Counted from the stretch's first letter, positions 16,296 to 43,534 are shown. The stretch is DNA of 64,000 nucleotides from Escherichia phage SP27 (LC494302.1), one strand, 5' to 3'. Notes: generated by a model from the letters alone, not told the origin. Translations and numbers: made by a program.

Positions 16296-16296
16296 T

Positions 16297-28475: not shown

Positions 28476-29585
28476 TTATTTTGGTAAATCAATTTTAGTA
28501 AAGACTGCAACATCCTCGATTGCACCTGGAATGGCGTAATACGATCCAGTACTATACACATCTCCATTTTTGGTTAATATCGATGTCAAACCATCACTAA
28601 AAAGAACATCCCTAATCTCACTAACTTCAACGGGTAATTGTAAATTGGTAGCACTATATATAGCACCAGTTTGAGAATTGTTTAATCCCAAACCACGGTT
28701 CGCCCCAACACCCTTCTGATATGTACTAGTAATTACCATTTGTGTAGCAGTATTTAAGGCAGGTGAATTCGTCATAAACAACGGAGAACTATTAGGCAAA
28801 GTACTTAAAGGAACTGCACGGAATGTAGTCGTACCTGAACTAAGAAAGTTTGGAGTTTGACCACATACGAAATATGATGTACCATTATAGTAATTTAATG
28901 CATTACCACCAATGGCTGCATCGATTACACCAGAACTACGCAATCCCCAAGTGTTAATTTGTGTTTGGTTCCCCGTACCATGCTGCCCACTACTATTCCA
29001 TCCAGAACTATATAGCTTATTATCTAATGTAAGATACATACTATCATTCGCATTGGTCATTACTTTACGAACGTTCGTAGCACATTGAGTTAATGTGTAA
29101 ATTGATGATGAACCAATACCCAAAGAACCACGATATCCATTATCTCCTGCACCATAGAGTACTGAATTAGTGCTAAGTACAAATATTAAACCATTTGTAC
29201 ATACAATATTAGCAATTTCACTTACTGGTATAGCATTGGTAAACCAATTAGTTCTTTCAACTAATACAGTACTGTAAGAAGTAGTTGTAGAAGATGAGAA
29301 CCAGTACGTTTGACCTGATGTCCATATCGTATTATCATTTTTAATAATAACAAGTGTACGATCACCCACGAAAAAATTAGAAACATCTGCACTTACTAAT
29401 GTCCACGAAGACACCGTGTTGGTATTACCATTTCCAGATTCACCACCTTGATTTCTACCTATGTAATATAAATCATGTGAATCAGTCAATAAGAATTGGC
29501 CTTGGGTAGAAGCACCAACTTTAATTATTTTTTTAGGACCAGGGACAATATTTCCATACATAATCATTCTTCCAAAAGGTAACAT
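28476..29585 (-). CDS. RCC1-repeat protein, family R
   Basis: true start MLPFGRM at 29585; RBS overlaps stop of upstream paralog (no cassette between them). Confidence 0.8.
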   Translation of the reverse strand: MLPFGRMIMYGNIVPGPKKIIKVGASTQGQFLLTDSHDLYYIGRNQGGESGNGNTNTVSSWTLVSADVSNFFVGDRTLVIIKNDNTIWTSGQTYWFSSSTTTSYSTVLVERTNWFTNAIPVSEIANIVCTNGLIFVLSTNSVLYGAGDNGYRGSLGIGSSSIYTLTQCATNVRKVMTNANDSMYLTLDNKLYSSGWNSSGQHGTGNQTQINTWGLRSSGVIDAAIGGNALNYYNGTSYFVCGQTPNFLSSGTTTFRAVPLSTLPNSSPLFMTNSPALNTATQMVITSTYQKGVGANRGLGLNNSQTGAIYSATNLQLPVEVSEIRDVLFSDGLTSILTKNGDVYSTGSYYAIPGAIEDVAVFTKIDLPK

Positions 29586-29593
29586 ATTCCCTC

Positions 29594-30796
29594 CTATTGT
29601 TGCCATAACTGCGATGGCATTAATGTTAGTGTAGTAATACTATAAGTGCCATCTGGCAATCTACCACCATTTCCATTCCAGCCACCACATGCATATAATT
29701 TATAATCTTTAGTAATTATTATGGTTCTGCTCCAATCTTTAGATGCCATAAGAACATTGTCATAACCACTACTTATTGCACTAAGATTAAAAATATTCCA
29801 AGTTCTAACTAATGTATTAGTTCCATTACCTTCTTGACCATATGAGTTAGCACCACTACTTCTAACATATGGTGCGTATTGTGCCATAGGTGCACCAATT
29901 GATGCATTTCCCATATTACTTGGACAAATAAAAGTACTGTACTTACTTACATCAACCGTGACCGATGTGTTCCTAATTGGTGTTAGCTGATTTACCGATG
30001 TAGTCGTACCATTACCAGCTTGTCCAGAACTGTTAGCCCCGCTATAATATACAGACCCACCAGTAGTAAACCACCAAGTAACATCGTATGTAGTACTAAT
30101 ATGTTCTACATTACTAATCACGAATTTGTTCAAATATACAACAGAACTACCACCACATCCACTTTCACCAAAGTTATCCTTACCACAAAACCATGCATCT
30201 TTATTTGATTTGATATAGTGCGTTCCTTGTAATGAACATGCCATATGTGTAACTTCACCCATATTAGTCATAACTGTGAGTGTAGGGATGGAATTTTTAT
30301 TCCCAGAGCCACATTCACCATTAGTATTTCTTCCACACGCAATTACTCTACCATCGGTTAATAATATTCTAGTACTTTCACCTATATATACACTCTTGAT
30401 CATATTAGCCATAACACCTATTTTATTAAATGCAACAGTAACATCAGTCCATGTTGTCAAATAACCATTAACAGGTGTTGCATCTCCATAATCAGAAAAT
30501 GCACCAACCGACCCAGTGTAGTATATTTTATTATCCAAATCAATCATCAATGAACCTTGAACACCAAGCCAAAAGGCTGCACAGTTCCTTGCAAGTACTG
30601 TAAATGACGAAACTGCTGCTGAATTCCCAAGACCAAATTGATAAAAGTTATTACTACCATAACCATATAAAGTATTAGTTGGGTTATGGAGATACATACA
30701 GTTTGTATAATGTTGTTGTAAAACATCTGAGAACTCTACAGGTTCTGGACCTGGTGCAATATTTGCGTACTTAACCATTCTTCCAAAAGGTAACAT
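29594..30796 (-). CDS. RCC1-repeat protein, family R
   Basis: MLPFGRMVKYANIAP start; motifs GSNNFYQFGLGN, GRNTNGECGSGN, GANSSGQAGNG. Confidence 0.8.
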   Translation of the reverse strand: MLPFGRMVKYANIAPGPEPVEFSDVLQQHYTNCMYLHNPTNTLYGYGSNNFYQFGLGNSAAVSSFTVLARNCAAFWLGVQGSLMIDLDNKIYYTGSVGAFSDYGDATPVNGYLTTWTDVTVAFNKIGVMANMIKSVYIGESTRILLTDGRVIACGRNTNGECGSGNKNSIPTLTVMTNMGEVTHMACSLQGTHYIKSNKDAWFCGKDNFGESGCGGSSVVYLNKFVISNVEHISTTYDVTWWFTTGGSVYYSGANSSGQAGNGTTTSVNQLTPIRNTSVTVDVSKYSTFICPSNMGNASIGAPMAQYAPYVRSSGANSYGQEGNGTNTLVRTWNIFNLSAISSGYDNVLMASKDWSRTIIITKDYKLYACGGWNGNGGRLPDGTYSITTLTLMPSQLWQQ

Positions 30797-30842
30797 ATTT
30801 CCCTCCTTTATTCATTATACTATATTTAATACAAAAAGAAAT
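30797..30842 (-). promoter_or_regulatory. conserved array promoter/leader cassette
   Basis: near-identical copy. Confidence 0.5.
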
Positions 30843-30861
30843 GCCAGTATCAAGTACTGGC
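30843..30861 (-). terminator. array hairpin terminator
   Basis: GCCAGTACTTGATACTGGC + U-tract. Confidence 0.6.
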
Positions 30862-30867
30862 ATAATA

Positions 30868-32046
30868 TTATCGGTTAAATTTAAAATCTGTTATGTGTGT
30901 CCATGTATGATTTAATGGGGTACTCATTGGTGTAAAGCCAGCAGGGTCTGACAAAGCTGTACCACGTGCGTACATAAATTGATTGCCAGTACAATCCATT
31001 ATAGCATAAGAACGTGTTGCTGTGCCACATTTGAACCCAACTGCACTACTTGGGGTCGGTAATACTTCAAATGTAGGTGCATTTGAACTACCACCCCCAT
31101 CTTTTGTTCCAGCTATGTACAGAACTCCATTAGTATCAATGATTAAGTTAGTCCAATATGCTTGTTCTCGACCAGCATAAAAATATGTTAAATCACCGGG
31201 TACAAATGGTAACGTTCCTTTATATATTGTGGTATTAACATTCACTGGTGCACCAGCTACACCCCATGAACTCATATAGTTTCTCCCACTTGCGTAGAAT
31301 GTAGTTCCTTTACCGTAAAGTATTAATGTTGCTTGACTTGTTCGCATTGCATTATATTCAAACTCAGGATCATCAGTAGCGTCCTTAAAAATCTGTGTCC
31401 ATGTTGTTATATTGCCAGTAGTTGTAACACCCATTTGATAATAATAATTATCACCAGTAGCATAGAATTCTTTAGGGCCAGTTTGTACAATTGCATTCCC
31501 ATTAGTTAACCAAAAATCTAATGTATTAGTCTTGATCTTGGTTGGTGTGTAATTCGCCACGGTATTTCCTTTTCCGAAATAACCATTAGCGTTATTTCCA
31601 TGACCCCATAAATCACCATTAGTTGTGCGTAGGAATAATGTACCAGTATTGAATCCAACTTTTTCTATAGTACTTATGTCAATACCAACAGTCGTGTACT
31701 TCGTTGTAAAATCTTGAAAAGTACTCCAATAATTAGATGAACCATTAAACATGGTTTGTCTACCAGTGTACTTCACTTTATTATCGTTAGTGATAAGTAA
31801 TGTCCCCCACACTGACGCGAACATTAACTTAACATTTTCCATAACAAAGTATGGCTTACCGTATGCTGACGCGGTAGTGTTTAAACCTAATAGTTGTCCA
31901 TCATTACTACAACCCCATACTTCGCCGTTATCCAAAAGCATCAACATAGTAGGTTTGCCGGATGATACATCCAAAAAGAAATCTTTTGGTGTTGGTACAC
32001 CAGGTACAATATTTCCGTACTTAACCATTCTTGTAAAAGGTAACAT
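30868..32046 (-). CDS. RCC1-repeat protein, family R (first gene of the array)
   Basis: true start MLPFTRM at 32046 with GGAGGG RBS; motifs GHGNNANGYFGKGN. Confidence 0.8.
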   Translation of the reverse strand: MLPFTRMVKYGNIVPGVPTPKDFFLDVSSGKPTMLMLLDNGEVWGCSNDGQLLGLNTTASAYGKPYFVMENVKLMFASVWGTLLITNDNKVKYTGRQTMFNGSSNYWSTFQDFTTKYTTVGIDISTIEKVGFNTGTLFLRTTNGDLWGHGNNANGYFGKGNTVANYTPTKIKTNTLDFWLTNGNAIVQTGPKEFYATGDNYYYQMGVTTTGNITTWTQIFKDATDDPEFEYNAMRTSQATLILYGKGTTFYASGRNYMSSWGVAGAPVNVNTTIYKGTLPFVPGDLTYFYAGREQAYWTNLIIDTNGVLYIAGTKDGGGSSNAPTFEVLPTPSSAVGFKCGTATRSYAIMDCTGNQFMYARGTALSDPAGFTPMSTPLNHTWTHITDFKFNR

Positions 32047-32094
32047 AAATCCCTCCTTATTCATTATATCATATTTACCCCATAAAGAAAACCC

Positions 32095-32123
32095 TTGACA
32101 TCCTTTCAGTACTGGTGTACTAT
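32095..32123 (+). promoter_or_regulatory. sigma70-like promoter for S1 array (divergent junction)
   Basis: TTGACA-17-TACTAT about 25 nt upstream of ATG 32149. Confidence 0.5.
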
Positions 32124-32148
32124 AGAAGGAATATAAGGAGAACTACAC

Positions 32149-32376
32149 ATGACAAATACTCTTAAGTACTACCTCAATACTCTAAATGAACTAGAGTACG
32201 GGGAATTTCTCGCGGATAGTTCGTGGCTAATTGAGCTAAAAAATTATAATAGTCCAGGATGCACCCTTATGATGAACAATGCAATTGATACCCTCATTGT
32301 GAGTATTTTACACAGCAACATCTGCGGGGATAGCAATAAACAATTATCAAAAATCTTAGTACTGCTATCTATATGA
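32149..32376 (+). CDS. small protein, S1 tandem family
   Basis: AAGGAG RBS, TTGACA-17-TACTAT promoter upstream; 75 aa. Confidence 0.55.
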   Translation: MTNTLKYYLNTLNELEYGEFLADSSWLIELKNYNSPGCTLMMNNAIDTLIVSILHSNICGDSNKQLSKILVLLSI

Positions 32377-32576
32377 ATATCGAACAGTACTACATCGATG
32401 CACTACCAACAAAAGGTCTACGTGAAAGCCTACTGCATACACAAACTAATTTCAAACACCTCAAACGTAGCCCTAAACTCCTGAACTCGTACAGGAATAA
32501 TAACATAAGAAATGCTTTACAAGGGGTAGAATGTATGCAATACTATTACATCCTTACCCTATTAATTGAGTACTAA
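32373..32576 (+). CDS. small protein, S1 tandem family
   Basis: ATGA overlap with upstream stop; ends ..YYILTLLIEY. Confidence 0.55.
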   Translation: MNIEQYYIDALPTKGLRESLLHTQTNFKHLKRSPKLLNSYRNNNIRNALQGVECMQYYYILTLLIEY

Positions 32577-32577
32577 T

Positions 32578-32787
32578 ATGAATACTGAACATAAAGAATT
32601 CTACACCAAATACCTTAGCAACGAAGAACAATTGTTTCTAAGGAGTGTATCACCTGTAAGTACCAATACTCAATTCGGTAGAGATTGCTTTAATAATTGT
32701 ATACGTAGTACTCTAGAAGCAATCGAATGCAATAACAAAAATATTATGTACTCAGGTTTAATAGGACTAATATATTTCTATGAATAA
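32578..32787 (+). CDS. small protein, S1 tandem family
   Basis: MNTEHKEFY start right after upstream TAA; ends ..LIYFYE. Confidence 0.55.
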   Translation: MNTEHKEFYTKYLSNEEQLFLRSVSPVSTNTQFGRDCFNNCIRSTLEAIECNNKNIMYSGLIGLIYFYE

Positions 32788-32974
32788 TCATAAAGATTTC
32801 TATTGTAGTAAACTACCCAAACAAGAACAGCTATCATTCTCTTTAGCACCACCTATGAGAAAGGATAATCTGTATTATAATTACGATTTCAGGATGGTGA
32901 CACGTTATGCAATAGAACATCAGTTCCCTGAAACTAAGTACCGCTCTATCCTGAACCTCATCTTTAAGTTCTAA
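32780..32974 (+). CDS. small protein, S1 tandem family
   Basis: MNNHKDFY start; ends ..LNLIFKF. Confidence 0.55.
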   Translation: MNNHKDFYCSKLPKQEQLSFSLAPPMRKDNLYYNYDFRMVTRYAIEHQFPETKYRSILNLIFKF

Positions 32975-33026
32975 AAGGTACACCAGGGACCGAGTACTTT
33001 AATATAGTAAGGCTAATTACATTATA

Positions 33027-33212
33027 ATGAATCATATAAGCTACTACTACCAACAACTATCCGACAGAGACAAGTACAGTCACAACTCCCATGTGTGGTA
33101 CTACAAACGCGGCAGTATAAGAGACAAACAACATTACTTCTGTATTTCTATTAAAGAAGCACTGACAACTAAGTACACGTACCGAGCAGTACTTAAACTT
33201 ATTGAAATGTAA
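33027..33212 (+). CDS. small protein, S1 family (LKLI subfamily)
   Basis: 61 aa; ends ..YTYRAVLKLIEM. Confidence 0.55.
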   Translation: MNHISYYYQQLSDRDKYSHNSHVWYYKRGSIRDKQHYFCISIKEALTTKYTYRAVLKLIEM

Positions 33213-33222
33213 AGAGAATACT

Positions 33223-33405
33223 ATGAACATTGAATTGTACTTAAGTAAATTACAGCCTGGCGATAGATTCATCTACAATAAGTTCGAATTCAACTACAAG
33301 AACGGGAGCAACAAATATCGTCGAGGATACCTATATACAAGCACAAGAGATGCACAAAACGAAAAGTACACATACAGAGAAGTACTTAAACTAATCTCTA
33401 TTTGA
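33223..33405 (+). CDS. small protein, S1 family (LKLI subfamily)
   Basis: internal ATG 33223 (MNIELYL); ends ..YTYREVLKLISI. Confidence 0.55.
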   Translation: MNIELYLSKLQPGDRFIYNKFEFNYKNGSNKYRRGYLYTSTRDAQNEKYTYREVLKLISI

Positions 33406-33413
33406 GGTAATAT

Positions 33414-33599
33414 ATGAATACATTTGAGTACTATACCAATAAACTATCTATGCCTGAAAGATCTCATCTCTATGTGTGGAGAAATGCGTATAAAAGCGGC
33501 AATAAACTTATACAAAGAAATTCCCTTACAGTGTGTACAAATTTAATTAAAGCAGAGTACCGCACATATATTGAAGTACTCAAACTGATAGCAATATAA
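33414..33599 (+). CDS. small protein, S1 family (LKLI subfamily)
   Basis: MNTFEYY start; ends ..YIEVLKLIAI. Confidence 0.55.
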   Translation: MNTFEYYTNKLSMPERSHLYVWRNAYKSGNKLIQRNSLTVCTNLIKAEYRTYIEVLKLIAI

Positions 33600-33607
33600 G
33601 GTACTCT

Positions 33608-33787
33608 ATGCAAGAATTCTATATCTATAACCTCCAGCACAAAGATAGATACAACTATAATAAATTCCAAAGGTACTACACAGTCGGGAACAAAAGAGAT
33701 AAAAAACGTTATCTACTCTCGTGTACAGTAGAAGCACAAAACGAAAAGTACACGTACAGAGAAGTACTTAAACTAATCTCAATCTAA
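33608..33787 (+). CDS. small protein, S1 family (LKLI subfamily), 59 aa
   Basis: ORF MQEFYIYNL...YTYREVLKLISI fills the gap; below track cutoff. Confidence 0.5.
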   Translation: MQEFYIYNLQHKDRYNYNKFQRYYTVGNKRDKKRYLLSCTVEAQNEKYTYREVLKLISI

Positions 33788-33794
33788 GGTAGAC

Positions 33795-33983
33795 ATGAAC
33801 ACTTTTGAGTACTACTTCAATAAACTAAACCACATAGAACAAAGTATGCACAACTCATTTATTCAGCACCATCAATCATCTGCACATGGAATTAAAAATA
33901 TATCGATTGAGATTATCACTACCCGTGTACAGTCATCTGAACGTTATATGTATATTGATGTACTGAAACTCATCTCTATGTAA
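33795..33983 (+). CDS. small protein, S1 family (LKLI subfamily)
   Basis: MNTFEYYFNKL start; ends ..YIDVLKLISM. Confidence 0.55.
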   Translation: MNTFEYYFNKLNHIEQSMHNSFIQHHQSSAHGIKNISIEIITTRVQSSERYMYIDVLKLISM

Positions 33984-33991
33984 GGAATAAT

Positions 33992-34171
33992 ATGCAAGAA
34001 TACTATATAGAACACATAAGCATTAAAGACCGTTTCATGTACGACACCTTCGTGAAGTACTACAACCTGGCAACTAACAGTACTAAAAATATTAATCTCA
34101 ATAGCTGCATTCATCACGCACTAACAAAAGATAATCCCTTCAGGGAAATCCTCGCACTAGCATCTGTATAA
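33992..34171 (+). CDS. small protein, S1 family, 59 aa
   Basis: ORF MQEYYIEHISIKDRF... fills the gap; below track cutoff. Confidence 0.45.
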   Translation: MQEYYIEHISIKDRFMYDTFVKYYNLATNSTKNINLNSCIHHALTKDNPFREILALASV

Positions 34172-34181
34172 AGGAAACCAA

Positions 34182-34841
34182 ATGAAACTTAATGCACACA
34201 GCAAACAATACCTTAAGCACTTTAAGTACCTCAACAGTATTCAAGCAGAATCTATTACATCTGCATATACGTATCACCCAAATGTACTAAAGAAACGAAA
34301 TAAAAAGAAAAAATCCAGAAATGTTCTCGTATCTAAGAACCTCAAATCGTACTTGAAGAAAAATAATATAGCTCTTGCTTTTATTAATATCTATAATACT
34401 GATTTAAAAGTATTGAGTACTAATACCAGCACAAAAGCACTAAAGAATGCATCTATCTATATACACATGGATAATATCCCGTGCACTATAATTCTATCTT
34501 TCGGGAATGTATACTTCTTCGGGAATTGTAATAGCACCCATGATATCAGTACTGCACAATTCCAAATCGGCGATATGTACTGCATGGGTTCAGAAAAAAT
34601 ACACGATAACATGCACTTCTTCCAAAAGCAACGTACTAACGAAACTGATACAGTACTGCAATTCCTCAAAGAATTACAAGGCAAAGAATTATCAGAAGAA
34701 GATCTATTCATGTACAGTACTGTAATCGATAATCCAGAACTCTATAAAAACGCGTACAATCTAACAAAACATGTACAGGAACTTATCAGTACTGATAAGA
34801 AATTTCATCACCTCATTACGTATATTTCAAACTATGTATAA
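34182..34841 (+). CDS. hypothetical protein (219 aa) embedded in S1 array
   Basis: AAGGAAA RBS; Lys-rich N-terminal region. Confidence 0.55.
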   Translation: MKLNAHSKQYLKHFKYLNSIQAESITSAYTYHPNVLKKRNKKKKSRNVLVSKNLKSYLKKNNIALAFINIYNTDLKVLSTNTSTKALKNASIYIHMDNIPCTIILSFGNVYFFGNCNSTHDISTAQFQIGDMYCMGSEKIHDNMHFFQKQRTNETDTVLQFLKELQGKELSEEDLFMYSTVIDNPELYKNAYNLTKHVQELISTDKKFHHLITYISNYV

Positions 34842-35016
34842 AGAATACTACAAAGATAAAATCCCAATGCATCTACAACACCATATACCAAACGTTGCAT
34901 TGGGTATCAAAGATCACGCAAAGATAATGTTCCAACAATGTACTAAGTACACGCTCATATACGATGATAATCCATATATGCTGTACTACGTAGTAATGCT
35001 AACATTCAGGTACTAA
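34834..35016 (+). CDS. small protein, S1 tandem family
   Basis: internal ATG 34834 (MYKEYYKDKIPMHL); ends ..MLTFRY. Confidence 0.55.
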   Translation: MYKEYYKDKIPMHLQHHIPNVALGIKDHAKIMFQQCTKYTLIYDDNPYMLYYVVMLTFRY

Positions 35017-35017
35017 T

Positions 35018-35197
35018 ATGAATACTTATAAAGAATTCTACCTCTCGTACCTTAATTCCGATATAGTAACATCCAATACATTCAGTACTAAAATTATCTA
35101 TAATGAATTAATGAAAGAATGTATTAAAGGTGCTATTAACCCTAAAGATACGTATGACTTGTACTATGCAGTACTAACCCTTGTTTTCACGAAATAA
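35018..35197 (+). CDS. small protein, S1 tandem family, 59 aa
   Basis: ORF MNTYKEFYLSYL...LTLVFTK; below track cutoff. Confidence 0.5.
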   Translation: MNTYKEFYLSYLNSDIVTSNTFSTKIIYNELMKECIKGAINPKDTYDLYYAVLTLVFTK

Positions 35198-35205
35198 CAC
35201 ATAAT

Positions 35206-35397
35206 ATGAATAACCACAAAGAATACTACATAGAGAAACTCCCAATGTATCTCCAACACCTTGTACCAACAGAACCATTGGGTATAGAAAAAAACTACGA
35301 AAAAGACTACTTCATTCAGTGCACTAAATCCTCGATATATATTGAAGACTATAATCGAGTACTGTATCACATCCTTTTACTAATATATAGGTACTAA
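35206..35397 (+). CDS. small protein, S1 tandem family
   Basis: MNNHKEYYIEKLPMYLQH; ends ..LLLIYRY. Confidence 0.55.
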   Translation: MNNHKEYYIEKLPMYLQHLVPTEPLGIEKNYEKDYFIQCTKSSIYIEDYNRVLYHILLLIYRY

Positions 35398-35398
35398 T

Positions 35399-35581
35399 AT
35401 GCACAAAGAATACTACACACAATTTCTCCCCAGCATTTTTGAACACTACGCCAGATACAAAGTCCCTATGGATAACGATTTGGCAGTACTGGGATTCAAT
35501 AACTGCATAGAACGAAGTATAGAAAATAGTAGTAGTTATGACCAGCTATATAACACTATCCTACTTATATTCAGGTACTAA
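35399..35581 (+). CDS. small protein, S1 tandem family
   Basis: MHKEYYTQFLP; ends ..ILLIFRY; TAATATG junction. Confidence 0.55.
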   Translation: MHKEYYTQFLPSIFEHYARYKVPMDNDLAVLGFNNCIERSIENSSSYDQLYNTILLIFRY

Positions 35582-35582
35582 C

Positions 35583-35771
35583 ATGCATAAAGAATACTAC
35601 ACAAAATATTTCCCAATGTACCTCAGAACTAATCTATTAGATAAACCTCGCGGTATCAATGCACAAAATGATAAAGTGTATTTTACTATGTGCACTAAAG
35701 CATGTATACTAGATTTTGACAGCTACCATCGAGTACTGTATCATACCCTGTACCTAGCTTTCGTATTCTAA
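35583..35771 (+). CDS. small protein, S1 tandem family
   Basis: internal ATG 35583 (MHKEYYTKYFP); ends ..LYLAFVF. Confidence 0.55.
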   Translation: MHKEYYTKYFPMYLRTNLLDKPRGINAQNDKVYFTMCTKACILDFDSYHRVLYHTLYLAFVF

Positions 35772-35780
35772 GAGAACAAT

Positions 35781-35966
35781 ATGCATAAAGAATTCTACTT
35801 AAGCCATCTGGATCTAAACTCCCAAATGCTTATACCACTAATCCCAATAGATATCAAGGATAAGAAAAATACCGAACAATTCATTTACCATACACAGTGT
35901 GCGATCACCCCAAATTACATTCCATATGAATTGTACTACATTATCGCCCTAATATATAGGTACTAA
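35781..35966 (+). CDS. small protein, S1 tandem family
   Basis: MHKEFYLSHL; ends ..IALIYRY. Confidence 0.55.
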   Translation: MHKEFYLSHLDLNSQMLIPLIPIDIKDKKNTEQFIYHTQCAITPNYIPYELYYIIALIYRY

Positions 35967-35967
35967 T

Positions 35968-36153
35968 ATGCATAGAGAATACTACACACAATTTGTTAAA
36001 GGGAACTACAAACATGCCGTACCCAGAACCCCTTTAAATTCTCATGACCCAAGTACTATATTCTTGTTTAATGACGCAATACGTACAGTACTCAATACTA
36101 AAGATGAAGATGTGCAGTACGTATTCTTACTATTACTTATATACAGACACTAA
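35968..36153 (+). CDS. small protein, S1 tandem family
   Basis: MHREYYTQFV; ends ..LLLIYRH. Confidence 0.55.
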   Translation: MHREYYTQFVKGNYKHAVPRTPLNSHDPSTIFLFNDAIRTVLNTKDEDVQYVFLLLLIYRH

Positions 36154-36158
36154 CTAAT

Positions 36159-36341
36159 ATGAATAAAGAACATAAAGAATTCTATATACGAAAACTAACA
36201 TTCGTCCCCGTAAGAATATATAAAGAATGCGACCCAAGATTATACCTATGGCACTTCAATGAGTGCATAAAAGATTCTATATACCATAAGAACTATAAAG
36301 AACAATTGTGCTCAGTACTAACACTAGTACTATCATATTAA
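36159..36341 (+). CDS. small protein, S1 tandem family
   Basis: MNKEHKEFYIRKL; ends ..LTLVLSY. Confidence 0.55.
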   Translation: MNKEHKEFYIRKLTFVPVRIYKECDPRLYLWHFNECIKDSIYHKNYKEQLCSVLTLVLSY

Positions 36342-36356
36342 TTAATAGAGAATACT

Positions 36357-36548
36357 ATGTATAAAAACTTCTATATAAGTAAACTAAAAGAAAATGAACA
36401 AGTATGGATTAGATCTATAATTCCACTGGCATTTAATAGATATGCATTTAACAGATGTACCGAGATTGCTATAGACCCTTATAATATTAAAGAGAATGTA
36501 CAGTATAATCAGTACTACTATATCTTAATGCTTATATATAGAAAGTAA
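36357..36548 (+). CDS. small protein, S1 tandem family (last member)
   Basis: MYKNFYISKL; ends ..LMLIYRK. Confidence 0.55.
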   Translation: MYKNFYISKLKENEQVWIRSIIPLAFNRYAFNRCTEIAIDPYNIKENVQYNQYYYILMLIYRK

Positions 36549-37184
36549 TTAAACACATAGAGACAGGGGAAGCTCCTAGTGAACAACCTTTATGTACAGG
36601 CGAATTGTTAAAATTCAGCCTGGACAAATGCGATCACTAGGATTCTCCCCAGGCTAAACCCCGTAATCATAGGTAGTCATAAGTAATCATATATAAACAT
36701 TTATATGAGCACCGTAGAATCACAGAATGATTATATATGATTCAGTACTGATTAGTATAGACAAGAATGCTCAAGAATGCACGGGAAGGATTCAGAATGA
36801 TTCAGTACTGATATGCCACTAAGTAGGCAGAGGAAGTCTGCCGTACTTTGTAGTTTCCAAGCTCCTTTTCCATTTTGCAAATTACATCAAATGTAATCAA
36901 AAGTAATCACGCAATGATTAGTACTGAATTATTACTTTCACCTTAATTTCAATTACCCCTTTACCCTTCGGGGTAAAATTCAATTACCCCTTGAGGCTCC
37001 AGCAAAAAGTTGGTTAGTACTCCATCCTAAATCTGGATCGTAAAAAATTTGGAGTACCTATGAAATAAAAGTTGGATCTTCGAAAGTTGAAATTTACGTT
37101 GGGACATATAGGATTTGTGGGATATAATGAGTTTTGTAGCGATACAGATTATACGATTTCAGTACTGAATAATGAAAGAAAGCT

Positions 37185-37212
37185 ATTGACATTATGATTC
37201 AGTACTGTATAA
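37185..37212 (+). promoter_or_regulatory. orphan sigma70-like promoter in ORF-free region
   Basis: TTGACA-16-TATAAT with no ORF downstream. Confidence 0.4.
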
Positions 37213-37599
37213 TGTTCTACATAGGGTGATGAGTTGCTGCGAACAATTCATTTACTCTACCTCCTGTCGTGAGACAGTACAGAAAAGATAGTTCCTCCTG
37301 TGGTGGTACATCTTTTTGAACCTCATATGAAAATCGTAATAACAGTACTGATATTAACAGAATGGTGTCAGTACTGATTTTAATCTAAAGCATTATGCCA
37401 CCAGCACAAGTTGGTGGATTCCCTCTAACAGTATTCAGTACTACATGATAGTCTTCATCCTCCTAGGGTAACATAGTGAGGGCTATGATGGCAGTACTGA
37501 ATACTCCCTTTCAAAAGATAGATCTATGGTATAGTACTGACGGATTTTGGGTGTAGTTACCCTGGATGGATTTTGGACGTAGATATGTCTAGCCCTCCA

Positions 37600-37735
37600 G
37601 AAGTCTGGAAGTAAAGATGGCTATCCATCTAGACGGCTAAACGGATAGATTTCTGGATGGCTGGATGGCTAGACGTTTGGACGGCTAAACGGCTAGATGG
37701 TTACACGTCTGGAAGTATAGACGGCTAAATCAAAA
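37600..37735. repeat. cluster of short direct repeats (GACGGCTAAACGG / GGATGGCT / CTAGACG)
   Basis: GACGGCTAAACGG x3-4 and GGATGGCT x3 within about 130 bp. Confidence 0.55.
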
Positions 37736-38074
37736 TTTTATTTTGTTTTTTCCAATAGTTCCCCTACCGCGTGGGGATAGTTTCCCCGCAGTATCTGGAG
37801 TTAGATTTTTCTGAATCTGGAATCATTATCTTATAAACTGGGGGCAATGTCAACGGCCTGGACGGATATTTTTAAAAATTTTTTCAGTACTGAATTTTGG
37901 GCGTAACTATGCACCCGGTGGGCTTGAGTCTTTCTCGACTTGATGGAACTATTATACAGTACTGAAAAAATAAAGCAATACCCTGGAAGCAAAAAAGTTT
38001 TAATTAATTTGCTTGCTATCCTGGGCCGGACTATGGTACTATATTTCAGTACTGAGAAAGTGCGTTTACCTGCT

Positions 38075-38145
38075 AGGGTGCGGGAGTGTATCCTTTTTTT
38101 ATATCTTGAATTTTGGGCGTAATTCCGCACCCTCTGGGGTTTCCG
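38075..38145 (+). repeat. leader-box-like element with long-range stem
   Basis: AGGGTGCGGGAGTGTATC ... CCGCACCCT: 9-bp inverted repeat enclosing about 40 nt. Confidence 0.35.
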
Positions 38146-38233
38146 CTTTCTCGCGTCTATGTAGTAATTATACGCTTTTTCAGGATCAAGTCAATACCTA
38201 AAAACAAAATAATTGAAAATAATTTAACGCGTT

Positions 38234-38322
38234 TAAACGGCCCGTAACGCCCTGGAATGATTAGAATGGTGCAAATGTATAGCTTAGGTGTATTAATGCG
38301 TTAGAATGCGTCTGAGGCCGTT
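38234..38322. repeat. inverted-repeat-bounded element containing GTTAGAATGCG motif
   Basis: AAACGGCC ... GGCCGTTT arms; GTTAGAATGCG also recurs near 44328 (rc), 44397, 48431. Confidence 0.35.
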
Positions 38323-38469
38323 TTATGGGGTGTAGTAGTGATTTGGTTGATTCAGTACTGAATAATAGTACTCCTATATAGAAAGATAGTTCCCCTGGAT
38401 GGTTGCAGTACTGAATAATAGTACTCCTATATAGAAAGAAAACTATTTTAAAAGTATTTGTAGAAAGTA

Positions 38470-38530
38470 CTTGCACCGTACTGATAAAAGCGTATAATGT
38501 TTTACATCGAGAGCGGGAACACTTCCCGCT
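38470..38530 (+). promoter_or_regulatory. PeSL cassette
   Basis: ACTTGCAC..GCGTATAATGTTTTACATC + hairpin AGCGGGAACACTTCCCGCT. Confidence 0.65.
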
Positions 38531-38553
38531 ACACATTAAGAGAGATTAAAACG

Positions 38554-38916
38554 ATGGCGACTCAAATCAATAAAATCATGCTTAACCTGGTAAACTTCCG
38601 CGATGAGATGAAAGGTCTTCCGGCTGAAACTGTAAAAATTCACATTGCAGCTTATCGGGAACTTATTGCAATGTTGCCGCTTAAGCGTGAACAATACGCC
38701 GCTACTTTGATGCTGGATTCAATGATCCATATAATGATCTCAAATGATTTAACGATGGTTTATCAGTACATGGGCGAAAATTTCGCGGTGTGTAGTAAGC
38801 CAGTACCAGGGATGGCAACAACTGAGGAATTGCACGGCTTAAACTTAAAACAAGATGCATGGGATAATATGCCTCGTTTCCTGGTATGGGCTGACAGTGG
38901 CAAAATTTACAAATAA
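38554..38916 (+). CDS. hypothetical protein
   Basis: PeSL cassette then AAGAGAG RBS before ATG 38554 (track ORF start lies in promoter). Confidence 0.6.
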   Translation: MATQINKIMLNLVNFRDEMKGLPAETVKIHIAAYRELIAMLPLKREQYAATLMLDSMIHIMISNDLTMVYQYMGENFAVCSKPVPGMATTEELHGLNLKQDAWDNMPRFLVWADSGKIYK

Positions 38917-38930
38917 GTTTAATAAAGTAC

Positions 38931-38990
38931 TTGCAAACTATGTTTAATGGCGTATAATGTTTTACATCAGGTGGGGAATAGTTCCCCACT
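38931..38990 (+). promoter_or_regulatory. PeSL cassette
   Basis: TTGCAA-16-TATAAT + hairpin GTGGGGAATAGTTCCCCAC. Confidence 0.65.
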
Positions 38991-39008
38991 ATATAAGAGG
39001 ATTAAAAA

Positions 39009-39248
39009 ATGGCTAAATCAAAAATGTTCTTAGGTCACAAAAACAAAACTCATTGGAATGTAAGCCTGTGGATTAATAACGATGAGGGATTGTATCGGTT
39101 GGCCCTGGACTTTATTGCCGCCAATACTAATCGCAATGATGCGGCCCGTCATATGATGTTATTTTTAGAACAGACTGGACAAGATAAAACACCGGACGGA
39201 TTCAAATATAGCACTACTGCGATCCGTGCGGCGATGGTTGGAATGTAA
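39009..39248 (+). CDS. hypothetical protein, family C (paralog of 41050..41289)
   Basis: PeSL + AAGAGG RBS; shared GHKNKTHWNVSLWINN and PDGFKYSTTAIRAAMVGM. Confidence 0.65.
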   Translation: MAKSKMFLGHKNKTHWNVSLWINNDEGLYRLALDFIAANTNRNDAARHMMLFLEQTGQDKTPDGFKYSTTAIRAAMVGM

Positions 39249-39261
39249 TAGAATTTATTTA

Positions 39262-39297
39262 AAGTACTATCATTTTTTTGCGATAGTACTTTATAAT
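39262..39297 (+). promoter_or_regulatory. promoter with AGTACTAT..ATAGTACT palindrome (operator-like)
   Basis: AGTACTATC..GATAGTACT inverted repeat + TATAAT; weak -35. Confidence 0.4.
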
Positions 39298-39334
39298 AGT
39301 GTTTTATTCATACACCAACGATAAGGGCAACAGC

Positions 39335-39601
39335 ATGAATATTAAGTATTTTGCGACGCGTGAACAAGCTCGGATCGCCGCACGCCAGGACGGGGCAACG
39401 TTTAAAGATATGGGAGCGGGATCGGCAAGTGGTGAACGTTGGGCCATTGTAAAGCGTAGTACGGCCAGATCTTTACAGTACTGGTTAGCGGCCTTAAAAA
39501 GTCCCGATAGTGTATCGCGTCGAGTGGTAGAAATAAAGCTCGACCGAAAGGGCAACCGCGTGACCGTGTACCGTACTAAAAAGATTGCAGTACTTGAATA
39601 A
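39335..39601 (+). CDS. hypothetical protein, family A (paralog of 52376..52771)
   Basis: AAGGG before ATG 39335; shared FYATREQARI..TFKDMG and DRKGNRVTVY. Confidence 0.6.
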   Translation: MNIKYFATREQARIAARQDGATFKDMGAGSASGERWAIVKRSTARSLQYWLAALKSPDSVSRRVVEIKLDRKGNRVTVYRTKKIAVLE

Positions 39602-39608
39602 AAAGTAC

Positions 39609-39668
39609 TTGCAAACTATGTTTAATGGCGTATAATGTTTTACATCGAGAGCGGGAACACTTCCCGCC
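39609..39668 (+). promoter_or_regulatory. PeSL cassette
   Basis: near-identical to 38931 copy; hairpin AGCGGGAACACTTCCCGC. Confidence 0.65.
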
Positions 39669-39688
39669 TATAACCTGGAGTAATAAAA

Positions 39689-39919
39689 ATGACTAATATG
39701 TATATGACTGAAGTTAAAACCGTAAAAGATACTACCACGAATAAAACTACTTACTTACAGCGGATCTGTGGTGTATGGCAACGTATCAGCAAATCAAAGT
39801 ACTTTAAATTAACATCATATGCAAATCGTTCGGATTCATTCAGTACTGAAATAAAAGGTAATAAAGTACACCAATACGGCACTTATTATTATTATAGCCT
39901 GGACGCGATTGCAGTATAA
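39689..39919 (+). CDS. hypothetical protein
   Basis: PeSL + GGAG RBS; 76 aa. Confidence 0.55.
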   Translation: MTNMYMTEVKTVKDTTTNKTTYLQRICGVWQRISKSKYFKLTSYANRSDSFSTEIKGNKVHQYGTYYYYSLDAIAV

Positions 39920-39949
39920 GCAGTTTACAAATCTTTACAATTGCCGGTA

Positions 39950-39978
39950 TTGACTTATTTTGTCAGTACTGGCATAAT
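39950..39978 (+). promoter_or_regulatory. sigma70-like promoter
   Basis: TTGACT-17-CATAAT, leader box follows about 25 nt downstream. Confidence 0.45.
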
Positions 39979-40002
39979 GTATTCATTGGCAGATAAGCCG
40001 TA

Positions 40003-40030
40003 GCCCATAGGGTGCGGGAGTGTATCTATA
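40003..40030 (+). promoter_or_regulatory. conserved leader box AGCCCAYAGGGTGC..GTGTATCTA
   Basis: one of 7 copies, each about 20-25 nt after a promoter -10. Confidence 0.4.
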
Positions 40031-40169
40031 GAAAAAGTAGTTTAGTATAGTTACAATTGTGCACCCGGTGGGTTAGCTGTTGTCATGGGGTATATTATGC
40101 CAGTACTTGATAATGCTGTCAATACTTTTTTTTTAATATTCAGTACTGAAAACTATTTTTAAAAAGTAC

Positions 40170-40320
40170 TTGCAAACTATGTTTAAAGGCGTATAATGTT
40201 TTACATCAGGACGGGGAACGAAATAAGTAACTTCCCGTTAAGTAGCCCAGGAGTAAGGCACACGAAAAACTCCCCTGATAAAATAGTTTGACAATTGTTT
40301 TTAAAAGCGTATAATACTTA
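40170..40320 (+). promoter_or_regulatory. dual-promoter cassette with structured leader (copy 1)
   Basis: TTGCAA/TATAAT, then about 70-nt element ATCAGGACGGGGAACG..ACTCCCCTGAT, then TTGACA-16-TATAAT; about 90% identical to 51146..51292. Confidence 0.55.
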
Positions 40321-40347
40321 CATCAACTACTGAATGAGGGTTACAAA

Positions 40348-40959
40348 ATGAAAACTATCACTACTACTACTTATGTTATGGCTTTTTCTGAATTGAACGC
40401 AGAACAACAAACGTCAGCTATCGAACTGGTTCGGGAACGTGAAAAAAACTTAAACGATGATTATTTTTCTGAAAGTGAAATTGAATACTATAAAGAAACA
40501 GTACTACCGGAATATGGCATTAATGACGCTGAAATACAATTCAGTGGCTTTTGGTCCCAGGGTGACGGTGCATCAATCAGTACTGACCACGTTGACGCAG
40601 TGAAGTTTTTACGCAAGGTAAGAGCATTAACTAAGTATCGCTCAATCCGTCACTTGCTGAATGAAGATGATTTGGCGATGAGTGTAAAGCGTTCGCACTC
40701 CCACTACTCGCATGAGAATACTGTAAGCGGGTACATTGAATCGGCTTACACTGATTTAACCGCAAAACAAGAAACGTTAGTTAATGAGCTTGAGGAACTA
40801 CTCACTGAAACTATTCGTGAATTATCCCGCAAGTTGTACCGTGATTTAGAGAATGCATATGAGGATCAATTCACTACTGAAAACATTACGGCACTGATTG
40901 AGGGTAACGAATATCAATTCAATGTTATTGATGGAGTAGTAGAATCAATCGAATATTAA
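40348..40959 (+). CDS. hypothetical acidic protein (203 aa)
   Basis: TTGACA/TATAAT promoter and GAGGG RBS upstream. Confidence 0.6.
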   Translation: MKTITTTTYVMAFSELNAEQQTSAIELVREREKNLNDDYFSESEIEYYKETVLPEYGINDAEIQFSGFWSQGDGASISTDHVDAVKFLRKVRALTKYRSIRHLLNEDDLAMSVKRSHSHYSHENTVSGYIESAYTDLTAKQETLVNELEELLTETIRELSRKLYRDLENAYEDQFTTENITALIEGNEYQFNVIDGVVESIEY

Positions 40960-40971
40960 TTTAAAAAGTAC

Positions 40972-41034
40972 TTGCAAACTAAGTTTAAAAGCGTATAATA
41001 CTTTATATCGAGGCGGGGAGTGGTTCCCCGCTCA
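40972..41034 (+). promoter_or_regulatory. PeSL cassette
   Basis: TTGCAA-16-TATAAT + hairpin GGCGGGGAGTGGTTCCCCGCTC. Confidence 0.65.
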
Positions 41035-41049
41035 AACGAGGATTTAAAA

Positions 41050-41289
41050 ATGGCTAGTACTAAAACTTACAACGGACACAAAAACAAAACTCATTGGAAT
41101 GTAAGCCTTTGGATTAATAACGGTGAGTCATTGTATCGGCTTGCTCAAAGTTGCATCGCACAAAGTAGAACTAAAGATATTGCTGCGGAATGTATGTACC
41201 GCAGATTAAAAGCCAACGGTACTACTACAACGCCGGACGGCTTTAAGTATAGCACTACTGCGATCCGTGCTGCAATGGTTGGAATGTAA
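41050..41289 (+). CDS. hypothetical protein, family C (paralog of 39009..39248)
   Basis: PeSL + GAGGA RBS before ATG 41050. Confidence 0.65.
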   Translation: MASTKTYNGHKNKTHWNVSLWINNGESLYRLAQSCIAQSRTKDIAAECMYRRLKANGTTTTPDGFKYSTTAIRAAMVGM

Positions 41290-41346
41290 TATTCAGTACT
41301 GAGATAATGGCGGGAACTATTACCCGCCTTTACTGAGGGTTATCTA

Positions 41347-41634
41347 ATGAGTAAAGTAATAAAGTACAATGTGTTAAGCAAATCATTGTCTATCAGTGAA
41401 TGCACCGATGGTTTTTGGATGTACGATGAAACGCGTGGCATGAATTTAGCTATGCGTGCAAAAACTGCTGAGGCGGCGTATATTCAAGCACTGGAATACT
41501 ACCAGGAACGTTTGAAGGAAGTAGAAGAAGATTATAAAAGCCTCAAAGCGAAAGTAGATCATTTCGTCGGTCAATTCGTGGAAGACAACGACGAGGACGG
41601 GCACTACTGCGACCGTTGCGGATCTTACAGTTAA
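41347..41634 (+). CDS. hypothetical protein
   Basis: hairpin then GAGGG RBS; 95 aa, C-terminal CDRC. Confidence 0.55.
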   Translation: MSKVIKYNVLSKSLSISECTDGFWMYDETRGMNLAMRAKTAEAAYIQALEYYQERLKEVEEDYKSLKAKVDHFVGQFVEDNDEDGHYCDRCGSYS

Positions 41635-41651
41635 GTACTAAGGATTATATA

Positions 41652-41864
41652 ATGAGTGATTTAATTGAACGTATCAAAGAGCTTGAAGAAAAAGAATTGC
41701 AGTTGATCGGGTTACGGAATAAAGTATTCCATGATTTAGGTGGCTTTATTAATGCCTGGGATAGTGGCGATCCTGATGCGTTACCTGCTAACCGCCAGGC
41801 GATGATCAATGATGTGCGTGGTGTCTTTGATTATGTTTTAAAAGTACTAGACACTAAGCAATAA
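41652..41864 (+). CDS. hypothetical protein
   Basis: AAGGA RBS before ATG 41652. Confidence 0.5.
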   Translation: MSDLIERIKELEEKELQLIGLRNKVFHDLGGFINAWDSGDPDALPANRQAMINDVRGVFDYVLKVLDTKQ

Positions 41865-41925
41865 AGGCGTATAATACTTTATATTGGTACTGACAAACAT
41901 TATAAGCGATGCAGGAGCTTTAATC

Positions 41926-42111
41926 ATGACAACATTATCTGAGGTTATCCGCGATCAAGCTGCAAAGGCTGGAATGACTGTTATCAATGTAGGGATCAAG
42001 ATTGAGATCTCCCCTAACGAGTTGCAAGGGATTCCCGATCCTACTAGCTGGGATCGTGCTGGGCGAATGATGAGTAATGCTTCATTACTGGACGGTACAA
42101 AATTTAATTAA
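41926..42111 (+). CDS. hypothetical protein
   Basis: AGGAG RBS before ATG 41926. Confidence 0.5.
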   Translation: MTTLSEVIRDQAAKAGMTVINVGIKIEISPNELQGIPDPTSWDRAGRMMSNASLLDGTKFN

Positions 42112-42118
42112 AAAGTAC

Positions 42119-42180
42119 TTGCAATTAGTTTTCAGTACTGTATAATGGTTTACATCAAAGGGAGAAATGGTTCTCCCTGG
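42119..42180 (+). promoter_or_regulatory. PeSL cassette
   Basis: TTGCAA-16-TATAAT + hairpin GGGAGAAATGGTTCTCCC. Confidence 0.65.
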
Positions 42181-42196
42181 TAATGAGGAAAATACA

Positions 42197-42418
42197 ATGG
42201 CTAATATCACTACTCTTTCCCAACTGGAAGCACTGGTTAAATCTATGCGGGAACATGCCGACAAAATCGGCGTACAAGATCCAGCCGTTTGCTTCTGCGA
42301 CGAATTGAATGATGATACACTGGTAATAGCAGAAGTCCAGGACGTTTCTAACTATTCCTCGCGTTACACTGGCGGCGTAGCAAATAAAGGTGACTTCTGT
42401 TTATACCTTACAAAATAA
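42197..42418 (+). CDS. hypothetical protein
   Basis: PeSL + GAGGA RBS before ATG 42197; followed by hairpin terminator. Confidence 0.6.
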   Translation: MANITTLSQLEALVKSMREHADKIGVQDPAVCFCDELNDDTLVIAEVQDVSNYSSRYTGGVANKGDFCLYLTK

Positions 42419-42421
42419 CAA

Positions 42422-42452
42422 CGCGGGGAGATAATAACTCCCCGTTACTTTT
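42422..42452 (+). terminator. rho-independent terminator
   Basis: CGGGGAGATAATAACTCCCCG + TTACTTTTT. Confidence 0.6.
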
Positions 42453-42586
42453 TCAGTACTGAATCATTTAATAGACGGATCTCGGCACCCGGTGGGTTAG
42501 TGACTGTTTCGTCTTGATGTAGTAATTATGCCAGTACTGGATGCACTTGTCAACAACTATTTTTCAAATACTTTTTATTAAAATAC

Positions 42587-42645
42587 TTGCAATTAGTTTT
42601 TAAACGCGTATAATGTTTTGCATAGGGGGAGCGGTTCCCCTGGTA
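42587..42645 (+). promoter_or_regulatory. PeSL cassette
   Basis: TTGCAA-16-TATAAT + hairpin GGGGGAGCGGTTCCCC. Confidence 0.65.
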
Positions 42646-42661
42646 ACTAAGGAATAATAAA

Positions 42662-42898
42662 ATGCTTGAACAAATCAAATCAACGTCTGCGAATGTAACG
42701 GGAACGGTTGTACACTTTACTAGTGATGAATCGCGGGGCGTTCCCTATTGTGCTGTACATGTAAACACTGATGGCAACTACTGGTTTACGGTTTACGGAT
42801 CATATTCATTTGGACGGCCAGGGCATCAAAAAATTCTGGATAAAGTACAACCAACGGGTAAAAATATCACTGCCGAAATGTTTTATAAAAAATCATAA
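42662..42898 (+). CDS. hypothetical protein
   Basis: PeSL + AAGGA RBS; 78 aa. Confidence 0.6.
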   Translation: MLEQIKSTSANVTGTVVHFTSDESRGVPYCAVHVNTDGNYWFTVYGSYSFGRPGHQKILDKVQPTGKNITAEMFYKKS

Positions 42899-42903
42899 AG
42901 TAC

Positions 42904-42965
42904 TTGCAATTAGTTTTTAGTACTGTATAATATTTTACATCGCAAGGGGAAACGGTTTCCCCTGG
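42904..42965 (+). promoter_or_regulatory. PeSL cassette
   Basis: TTGCAA-16-TATAAT + hairpin GGGGAAACGGTTTCCCC. Confidence 0.65.
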
Positions 42966-42982
42966 TAACTAAGGATAATCAA

Positions 42983-43282: not shown

Positions 43283-43303
43283 TAGATACTACGGGGTAAC
43301 ATC

Positions 43304-43534
43304 ATGACTAAGCGAATTGTTTTACTTAACGAAAGCAGTACTACACAACTACTTAACGCCGTGCATTATGATATTGAAACGAGCGTTAATCTTATCAGTA
43401 CTGTAGTACTGTTGGACACTGGAAAGGTCGCCAATGATAAAGCGATTGCAGGTATATTAACGGATCTTGAGCCTGGTAGCAGTGCACCCATAACGTTAAA
43501 TGGTAAAGTGTTTAATATTTTACTCACTGATTAA
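43304..43534 (+). CDS. hypothetical protein
   Basis: GGGG RBS; 76 aa; followed by hairpin terminator. Confidence 0.55.
   Translation: MTKRIVLLNESSTTQLLNAVHYDIETSVNLISTVVLLDTGKVANDKAIAGILTDLEPGSSAPITLNGKVFNILLTD

Follow-up and report, generated by a model that had tools for sequence, protein, structure and literature searches.

A tandem array of small genes with variable copy number at the terminal-repeat border of a 121Q-like jumbo coliphage

The 64,000-nucleotide (nt) stretch of Escherichia phage SP27 (LC494302.1) analysed here, called the window throughout, carries on the + strand at 32149–36548 a tandem array of 19 small open reading frames (ORFs) of 59–75 amino acids (aa) together with one 219-aa ORF (34182–34841), the whole extending over ~4.4 kb. 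We read this array as a diversifying, early accessory small-gene family that acts in host takeover or anti-defence, and we assign that reading as a whole a probability of about 0.5. The descriptive part of it, held with high confidence, is that the array is a real coupled operon encoding an expanded helical family, that it turns over through repeats, that it is restricted to one genus and that it lies beside a terminal repeat; the functional part, in which the proteins would be expressed early and would be diversifying, putative binders that serve host takeover or anti-defence, is offered tentatively. Across 32000–37000 the window shares 93–98% DNA identity with 35 jumbo phages of Escherichia and Salmonella that belong to the 121Q/PBECO4 group, the best-matching relative being vB_EcoM_E9.1 (E9.1) at 98.3%, and by this identity the window is assigned to the genus Asteriusvirus, as a 121Q/PBECO4-like jumbo coliphage.

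Layout and coding status of the array

The array is tightly packed, with 96.7% of its bases coding and with neighbouring genes that either overlap by 4–8 nt or stand 1–15 nt apart (inter-gene distances of −8 to +15 nt), the sole exception being a 52-nt gap ahead of 33027. A first-pass annotation of this DNA had described the junctions as being of the type TAATATG, which is literally so at four of them (TAA-T-ATG); TAA-C-ATG occurs once, genes overlap at three junctions (by ATGA or by 8 nt), and spacers of 5–15 nt make up the others. Internal ATG starts were assigned to four ORFs (32578, 33223, 34834 and 35583) by means of the family alignment and orthologue annotation. The same annotation had counted four members just below 60 aa, where there are three, each of 59 aa (33608, 33992 and 35018), and it had made no mention of the unrelated 219-aa gene (m11), which sits mid-array and is found at the same array position in every Asteriusvirus examined. 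The genes, all on the + strand, are as follows.

32149–32376, +: m1, 75 aa, leading small gene; family homology not demonstrable
32373–32576, +: m2, 67 aa, probable distant member; start overlaps the m1 stop (ATGA)
32578–32787, +: m3, 69 aa, core member
32780–32974, +: m4, 64 aa, core member (PHROG 11711)
33027–33212, +: m5, 61 aa, VLKLI subgroup
33223–33405, +: m6, 60 aa, VLKLI subgroup; modelled with AlphaFold
33414–33599, +: m7, 61 aa, VLKLI subgroup; nearest to the core (core profile E 2.6e-4)
33608–33787, +: m8, 59 aa, VLKLI subgroup
33795–33983, +: m9, 62 aa, VLKLI subgroup
33992–34171, +: m10, 59 aa, divergent member of the VLKLI subgroup, ending REILALASV
34182–34841, +: m11, 219 aa, unrelated, PHROG 29152 (function unknown)
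34834–35016, +: m12, 60 aa, core member; 8-nt overlap with m11
35018–35197, +: m13, 59 aa, core member
35206–35397, +: m14, 63 aa, core member; modelled with AlphaFold
35399–35581, +: m15, 60 aa, core member
35583–35771, +: m16, 62 aa, core member
35781–35966, +: m17, 61 aa, core member
35968–36153, +: m18, 61 aa, core member
36159–36341, +: m19, 60 aa, core member
36357–36548, +: m20, 63 aa, core member, last gene of the array

That these are real tandem protein genes, 19 small ones of 59–75 aa on the + strand at this location, had been claimed before and is borne out by several kinds of evidence. ORFs of at least 59 aa number 21 on the + strand, against a mean of 0.69 and a maximum of 4 in 1000 shuffles, and the − strand of the region has only two. 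The ratio of nonsynonymous to synonymous substitution rates (dN/dS), calculated for the array genes including m11 against their orthologues in five phages, is 0.55 for E9.1, 0.49 for 121Q, 0.47 for SD-15_S21, 0.43 for JNE01 (few sites) and 0.34 for A4. In the comparison with A4, the most divergent usable one, differences at the first, second and third codon positions number 119, 87 and 196, an excess at the third position that together with the dN/dS range of 0.34–0.55 places the array under purifying but relaxed selection. Nearly all copies are intact across 14 genomes (the window and 13 others). A non-genic or chance run of ORFs is ruled out by the shuffle test, the dN/dS values and the conservation of the ORFs.

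Family membership and predicted fold

A hidden Markov model (HMM) built from m12–m20 and run against the six-frame translation of the whole window retrieves m3 (4e-12) and m4 (2e-9) and matches nothing beyond the array. On profile evidence the core family clearly comprises 11 members, m3, m4 and m12–m20, and exactly these 11 of the 19 small proteins match PHROG 11711 (function unknown; best E 5e-28 by hmmscan), with no match to it from m1, m2 or m5–m10 at E ≤ 0.01. Paralogues have diverged to 20–45% identity without decay. The six VLKLI genes (m5–m10) form a tight group of their own, a subfamily that had been recognised at 33027–33983 and that in fact has six members and extends to 34171. Collinear profile–profile alignment with hhalign relates VLKLI to the core with a probability of 76% (E 2e-5) for the first alignments and 91% (E 1e-6) once the alignments were enriched with orthologues, and relates m2 to the core with 83.5% (E 8e-6 over 60 columns), so that by profile comparison m2 and the six VLKLI genes are probable distant members. 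The m1 orthologue profile stays below 5% against both the core and the VLKLI profiles, and m11 as a fused or expanded family member is ruled out (hhalign probability 0.4%). The view of the first-pass annotation that all 19 genes are one family consequently holds for most of them as paralogues, with m1 left unlinked: by these comparisons, a single ancestral gene of ~60 residues is, definitely or probably, the source of 18 of the 19 small genes. The conserved ends that had been pointed out, (H/Y)KE(Y/F)Y at the N terminus and LxLI(F/Y)(R/K)Y or VLKLIxI at the C terminus, are real.

No Pfam family is matched at its curated threshold by any of the 19 members, the sole match being a weak one to EB1 (E 0.005), and m11 has no Pfam match above threshold. 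Searches of PDB sequences with the core and VLKLI profiles gave none at E ≤ 1. AlphaFold2 models were built with the family alignments for m14 (core) and m6 (VLKLI). The m14 model (mean predicted local distance difference test score, pLDDT, 90; predicted template modelling score, pTM, 0.74) has helices at residues 3–9, 14–17, 30–45 and 49–62, and the m6 model (pLDDT 85.8, pTM 0.68) at 3–8, 12–27, 30–44 and 47–59, and the same order of helices in the two supports a common ancestry of core and VLKLI. The predicted product is small and soluble, with three to four helices packed as a bundle. The conserved columns make up the hydrophobic core (KEYY, Y7/Y8, L12, P24–L25, F36, C39/T40, I44, L53, L57, L59, I60 and F/Y61); most non-core positions have an entropy of 2.5–3.3 bits, with loops and exposed sites extremely variable, and tyrosine is the commonest residue (11%). 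Structural matches of the predicted up-down bundle are to HEAT/VHS-like repeats, and none is to a helix-turn-helix or other known DNA-binding fold; Foldseek against BFVD returns family members only.

The last 10–14 residues of the proteins are hydrophobic (LLLIYRY, VLKLISI), as would suit membrane-active small proteins, tail-anchored or pore-forming, with a part in superinfection exclusion or lysis timing, and the 'hydrophobic tail' of the first-pass annotation implies such a role. The 19-residue Kyte-Doolittle mean, however, never rises above 1.18 in any member, so that none has a transmembrane segment; the hydrophobic stretch is too short and contains R, K and Y; there is no signal peptide; and AlphaFold, with high confidence, makes the C-terminal helix, of 13–14 residues, the final helix in the core of a soluble bundle, packed on helix 3. 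Membrane proteins with a transmembrane tail are rejected on the Kyte-Doolittle and AlphaFold results, and membrane activity of any kind is barely credible.

Promoter, gene junctions and turnover of copies

The gap between m1 and the divergent RCC1-like gene (start codon at 32064, − strand) measures 84 nt and holds a promoter-like site and a Shine-Dalgarno sequence, and the longest direct repeats of the region are the gene junctions themselves. These elements are listed here.

32095–32123, +: sigma-70-type promoter-like site, TTGACA (32095–32100), 17-nt spacer, TACTAT (32118–32123)
32135–32140, +: AAGGAG Shine-Dalgarno of m1, 8 nt ahead of the ATG
35362–35430, +: example junction repeat, with further copies at 35546–35614 and 35931–35999
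36134–36184, +: recombination footprint, ~51-nt junction sequence, single copy in the window

Transcription divergent from the RCC1-like array, from a promoter at 32095, had been proposed in the first-pass annotation and is supported on both counts: the site scored 10/12 in a consensus scan, and its −35 and −10 hexamers and their spacing are kept in 13 of 13 related genomes, including the divergent A4 and JNE01, with the spacer bases varying. Although m1 is just 57% identical in A4, the promoter hexamers are kept there. No terminator-like site was found inside 32149–36548, and the conserved promoter and lack of an internal terminator together suggest that host RNA polymerase transcribes the array as a single polycistronic message, hence early. 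The downstream starts either have an AGGT/AAGG motif 5–6 nt upstream or overlap the preceding stop. For four genes the gene upstream supplies this motif through its last-but-one codon, AGG (Arg), AGG-TAC ('RY') yielding an AGGT Shine-Dalgarno, and AGG provides 4 of the 6 Arg codons within the last three codons as against 5 of 51 elsewhere (Fisher p = 0.004). By this bias and the supply of AGGT, part of the conserved 'RY' end is a translation signal, a constraint on nucleotides.

Copy number, which the first-pass annotation had proposed to examine by comparative genomics, does vary, from 14 to 22 small genes over the 14 genomes; the arrays are collinear, with entire genes present or absent. The junction repeats (3′ end of a gene, stop, next start and 5′ end) are 50–70 nt long and lie at spacings of ~184–196 nt and multiples of these. 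In E9.1 an additional pair of genes lies between m18 and m19, with a copy of the ~51-nt junction sequence on either side, and judged from this arrangement the two-gene indel is the footprint of unequal homologous recombination, one such footprint having been found. In-frame chimeras occur in metagenomes, P0001 joining the N terminus of m14 to the C terminus of m16 and P0002 the N terminus of m12 to the rest of m14. Unequal recombination between the ~50-nt junction repeats explains both the copy numbers of 14–22 and the metagenomic chimeras. From one gene to the next, identity to the same relative can change abruptly, as from 100% to 78%, which suggests exchange between co-infecting phages.

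The turnover also bears on a different explanation, in which the genes are largely functionless, weakly selected duplicates ('stuffer' DNA) tolerated by a headful-packaging jumbo capsid. Some isolates are without whole genes, purifying selection is relaxed, and tandem duplication has been proposed as a route of genome growth in 121Q (PMC5646251), all of which this explanation would accommodate. It is nevertheless distinctly unlikely, given that dN/dS is below 1 in every comparison, that nearly all copies are intact in the 14 genomes with core residues, starts and ribosome-binding sites conserved, that the paralogues have reached their present divergence without decay, and that the promoter is conserved.

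The spacer of the promoter-like site includes CAGTACTG (32107–32114), and the arrangement TTGACA-N8/9-CAGTACTG-TATAAT recurs at other near-consensus sigma-70-type promoters, among them those near 9940–9970, 37186–37213, 42120–42146, 54445–54472 and 56415–56442. The palindrome TCAGTACTG(A) occurs 59 times in the whole window, where 0.47 would be expected, and is densest at 36740–43400; its other copies are free-standing TTCAGTACTGAA sites. We found no literature on the CAGTACTG motif, and from its distribution the palindrome may be an operator or other protein-binding site. Four CAGTACTG sites (34547, 34651, 34715 and 34787) are clustered in the 3′ half of m11, just upstream of the second family block, and orthologous m11 alleles have 0–4 of them; the cluster may be an internal regulatory region.

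The palindrome could be what the small proteins recognise, if they were nucleic-acid-binding proteins, either regulators or of nucleoid type. Its about 100-fold over-representation, its place in the array's own promoter and its four occurrences in m11 are compatible with this, and m5–m8 of the VLKLI subgroup are basic (pI, the isoelectric point, 9.4–9.6; net charge +5 to +6). The core members, by contrast, span pI values from 5.3 to 9.4, the predicted up-down bundle resembles HEAT/VHS-like repeats and not helix-turn-helix proteins, and 19 hypervariable copies would be unexpected for a reader of one invariant motif. We consider nucleic-acid binding a very improbable function for the family.

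Genomic setting, distribution and meaning

Window position 36822 aligns with base 1 of fEgEco12, the physical left end of that phage and the start of its direct terminal repeat, and for this reason the array is placed 273 nt ahead of the ~21-kb direct terminal repeat. For fEgEco12, PhageTerm and restriction digests located both the genome ends and the direct terminal repeats of 20,993 bp (PMC13070987). The far end of the repeat maps to about 57,750 in the window. About 100 nt beyond it begins a second tandem array on the + strand, at least 24 small genes of 65–90 aa with a conserved LGTNYQE motif (57848–63373, possibly continuing past 64000), for which kinship with the family studied here is ruled out (hhalign about 1%). 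With repeat borders at 36822 and ~57,750 and an array at both, each repeat in linear virion DNA has a tandem small-gene family on its inner side, the studied array just inside the right-hand direct terminal repeat and the unrelated one just inside the left-hand repeat.

The stretch from 36822 to about 57750 is the counterpart of the ~21-kb direct terminal repeat in fEgEco12 and Sharanji. ORFs of at least 100 aa are sparse in it and small + strand genes plentiful, DUF7249 paralogues lie at 39009–39248 and 41050–41289, and its promoters are near-consensus and of host type; in these features it looks like a pre-early or early region. Between the array and this content, 36549–38496 forms ~2 kb without convincing ORFs, which includes the fEgEco12 end position at 36822, short repeats with a 10-bp period (36663–36909), numerous CAGTACTG palindromes and GGATGG/GGCTAAACGG-type repeats at 37560–37720.

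The family has a narrow distribution. A word-indexed search of 5.8 billion proteins found 44 family clusters, of which those that are named or on long contigs are from Escherichia and Salmonella jumbo phages. When 1.84 billion representatives were searched exhaustively with a profile, 31 matched, one of them (P0069, 531 aa, repetitive) dismissed as a spurious low-complexity match, and the most divergent trace to Asteriusvirus JNE01 and a matching metagenome contig. By tblastn the family is confined to 35 Escherichia and Salmonella jumbo phage records, and a scan of IMG/VR recovered 121Q itself and nothing else. As far as these sequence searches reach, the family is restricted to the genus Asteriusvirus. 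Klebsiella phage fENko-Kae01, of a sister genus, has an RCC1-like gene that abuts the terminal repeat with no small-gene array between them, and the array accordingly appears to be an Asteriusvirus innovation.

On its other side the array adjoins, divergently and in every Asteriusvirus examined, the RCC1-like beta-propeller array, which in the window occupies 17354–32064 on the − strand with 12 full genes and two fragments; the full genes number 12 in E9.1, 12 in 121Q and 9 in JNE01, the paralogues being too divergent for copies to be counted with a single tblastn query. The RCC1-like array appears highly variable as well, since its copy at 30868–32064 has orthologues of at least 96% identity in just two phages. 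Further upstream, nine same-strand ORFs of 104–141 aa lie end to end at 13888–16668 (+), of which BLAST pairs only the first two as paralogues.

The constant adjacency of the two divergent arrays, their shared variability between isolates and the presence of two RCC1-like proteins in virions invite the idea that the arrays are one module in which the small proteins are partners (chaperones, adaptors or inhibitors) of the RCC1-like beta-propellers. The counts of small and RCC1-like genes (19 and 12 in the window, 21 and 12 in E9.1, 16 and 12 in 121Q, 14 and 9 in JNE01), however, neither pair nor track each other, and one-to-one pairing is excluded by this mismatch. The small genes are under a host-type promoter, while the RCC1-like proteins are virion proteins and presumably late; fENko-Kae01 has its RCC1-like gene at the terminal repeat without the small-gene array; and related Salmonella and Yersinia phages also have RCC1-like genes. 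Mass spectrometry of phAPEC6 virions lists the RCC1-like gp549 and gp551, and the array proteins gp540c–548c are absent from it. A partnership with the RCC1-like proteins is therefore given little chance. An array of immunity genes belonging to a polymorphic toxin system was likewise discarded, there being no toxin domain nearby and no pairing in number with the RCC1-like neighbours.

Returning to a diversifying accessory family as the preferred reading, the following sequence of steps is proposed. Host RNA polymerase would transcribe the ~4.4-kb operon early from the 32095–32123 promoter, and translation would be chained along the operon by overlaps or short spacers, the last two codons AGG-TAC of several genes serving, at sequence level, as the ribosome-binding site of the next. 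The junction repeats, which recur about every 190 nt, let unequal recombination add, remove or fuse whole genes in frame. The small proteins would bind host or defence proteins, with individual members apparently dispensable and exchanged between isolates. Several points weigh against this proposal. Genes that are largely redundant and under weak selection would also account for the dN/dS values and for the absence of entire genes from some isolates; membership of m1 in the family is not demonstrable; and no transcriptome for Asteriusvirus was found in the literature, the early timing depending on the match of the promoter to consensus alone. The phAPEC6 mass spectrometry is a weak indication that the array proteins are not virion components, as small proteins are easily missed.

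The same genes are already in databases as PHROG 11711 and as Asteriusvirus hypothetical proteins (121Q gp249–265, PBECO4 gp280–285 and phAPEC6 gp540c–548c), 'hypothetical protein' being the only label they have in the GenBank records of relatives; PHROG 11711 misses the VLKLI subgroup, m1 and m2 and has no function assigned. Known, then, are the genes as hypothetical proteins, and new are the definition of the family, the prediction of its fold, the double use of the gene ends, the footprint of recombination and the location flanking the terminal repeat; our literature search found no paper that deals with the array or with its fold, the junctions at which it recombines or its place at the edge of the terminal repeat. 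A single sentence in the literature, which gives no coordinates, refers to tandem paralogue arrays of 121Q as '>30 very similar genes' (PMC5646251). That remark probably refers to the larger 57848 array on the other flank, which is similar to the present one in consisting of tightly packed, same-strand tandem paralogues adjoining the direct terminal repeat and differs from it in encoding an unrelated protein family on the opposite flank of the repeat.

Comparable arrangements are found in other viruses. The terminal-redundancy module of SPO1 and the pre-early region of T5 have numerous small genes at or close to long terminal repeats, under strong host-type early promoters, and we know of no homologues of these host-takeover clusters outside their lineages; they consist, however, mostly of unrelated genes inside the repeat, whereas the present array is paralogous and just outside it, with a putative role in host shut-off. 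T4-like hyperplastic regions contain small early ORFs that are confined to a lineage and differ among close relatives, but these are mostly unrelated ORFans in contrast to a single expanded family with repeat-mediated gain and loss of cassettes. The MGF110/360/505 genes of African swine fever virus and the host-range 'accordions' of poxviruses are tandem paralogues near termini, with recombination-driven copy number and fast diversification. The array shares the features of such sub-terminal accordions in having paralogues 273 nt from the terminal repeat, 14–22 copies, a repeat-bounded indel and chimeras; it has no sequence or structural kinship with these families, which belong to other hosts, and a defence role here is suggested by analogy. 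The array is thus a virus 'multigene family' beside a genome end and does not constitute a novel type of system. A bolder version, which we think rather unlikely, would make it a built-in diversity generator, in which hypervariable surfaces are displayed on a conserved mini-scaffold of ~60 residues, the ends of the genes serve for recombination as well as for ribosome binding, and cassettes are duplicated, fused and shuffled within the phage population to yield novel small proteins that bind variable host defence or surface-independent immunity proteins; combined with the unrelated array on the opposite side of the repeat it would then be the phage counterpart of the sub-terminal families of African swine fever virus and poxviruses, with a new anti-defence fold.

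Should the functional proposal be wrong, what is left is an accessory family specific to this lineage, which databases already list under 'hypothetical protein'. Should the proteins act as binders in host takeover or anti-defence, the array would amount to a library of small inhibitors ready for use, of a fold without a match, and it could help to explain differences in host range among the 121Q-like phages that are considered for therapy. Jumbo phages are rich in unannotated small genes, and the array is a well-bounded case of how such genes originate and turn over: one ancestral gene of ~60 residues appears to have given rise to about 18 copies beside the terminal repeat, through a mechanism of recombination that is visible, and with isolates that differ measurably.

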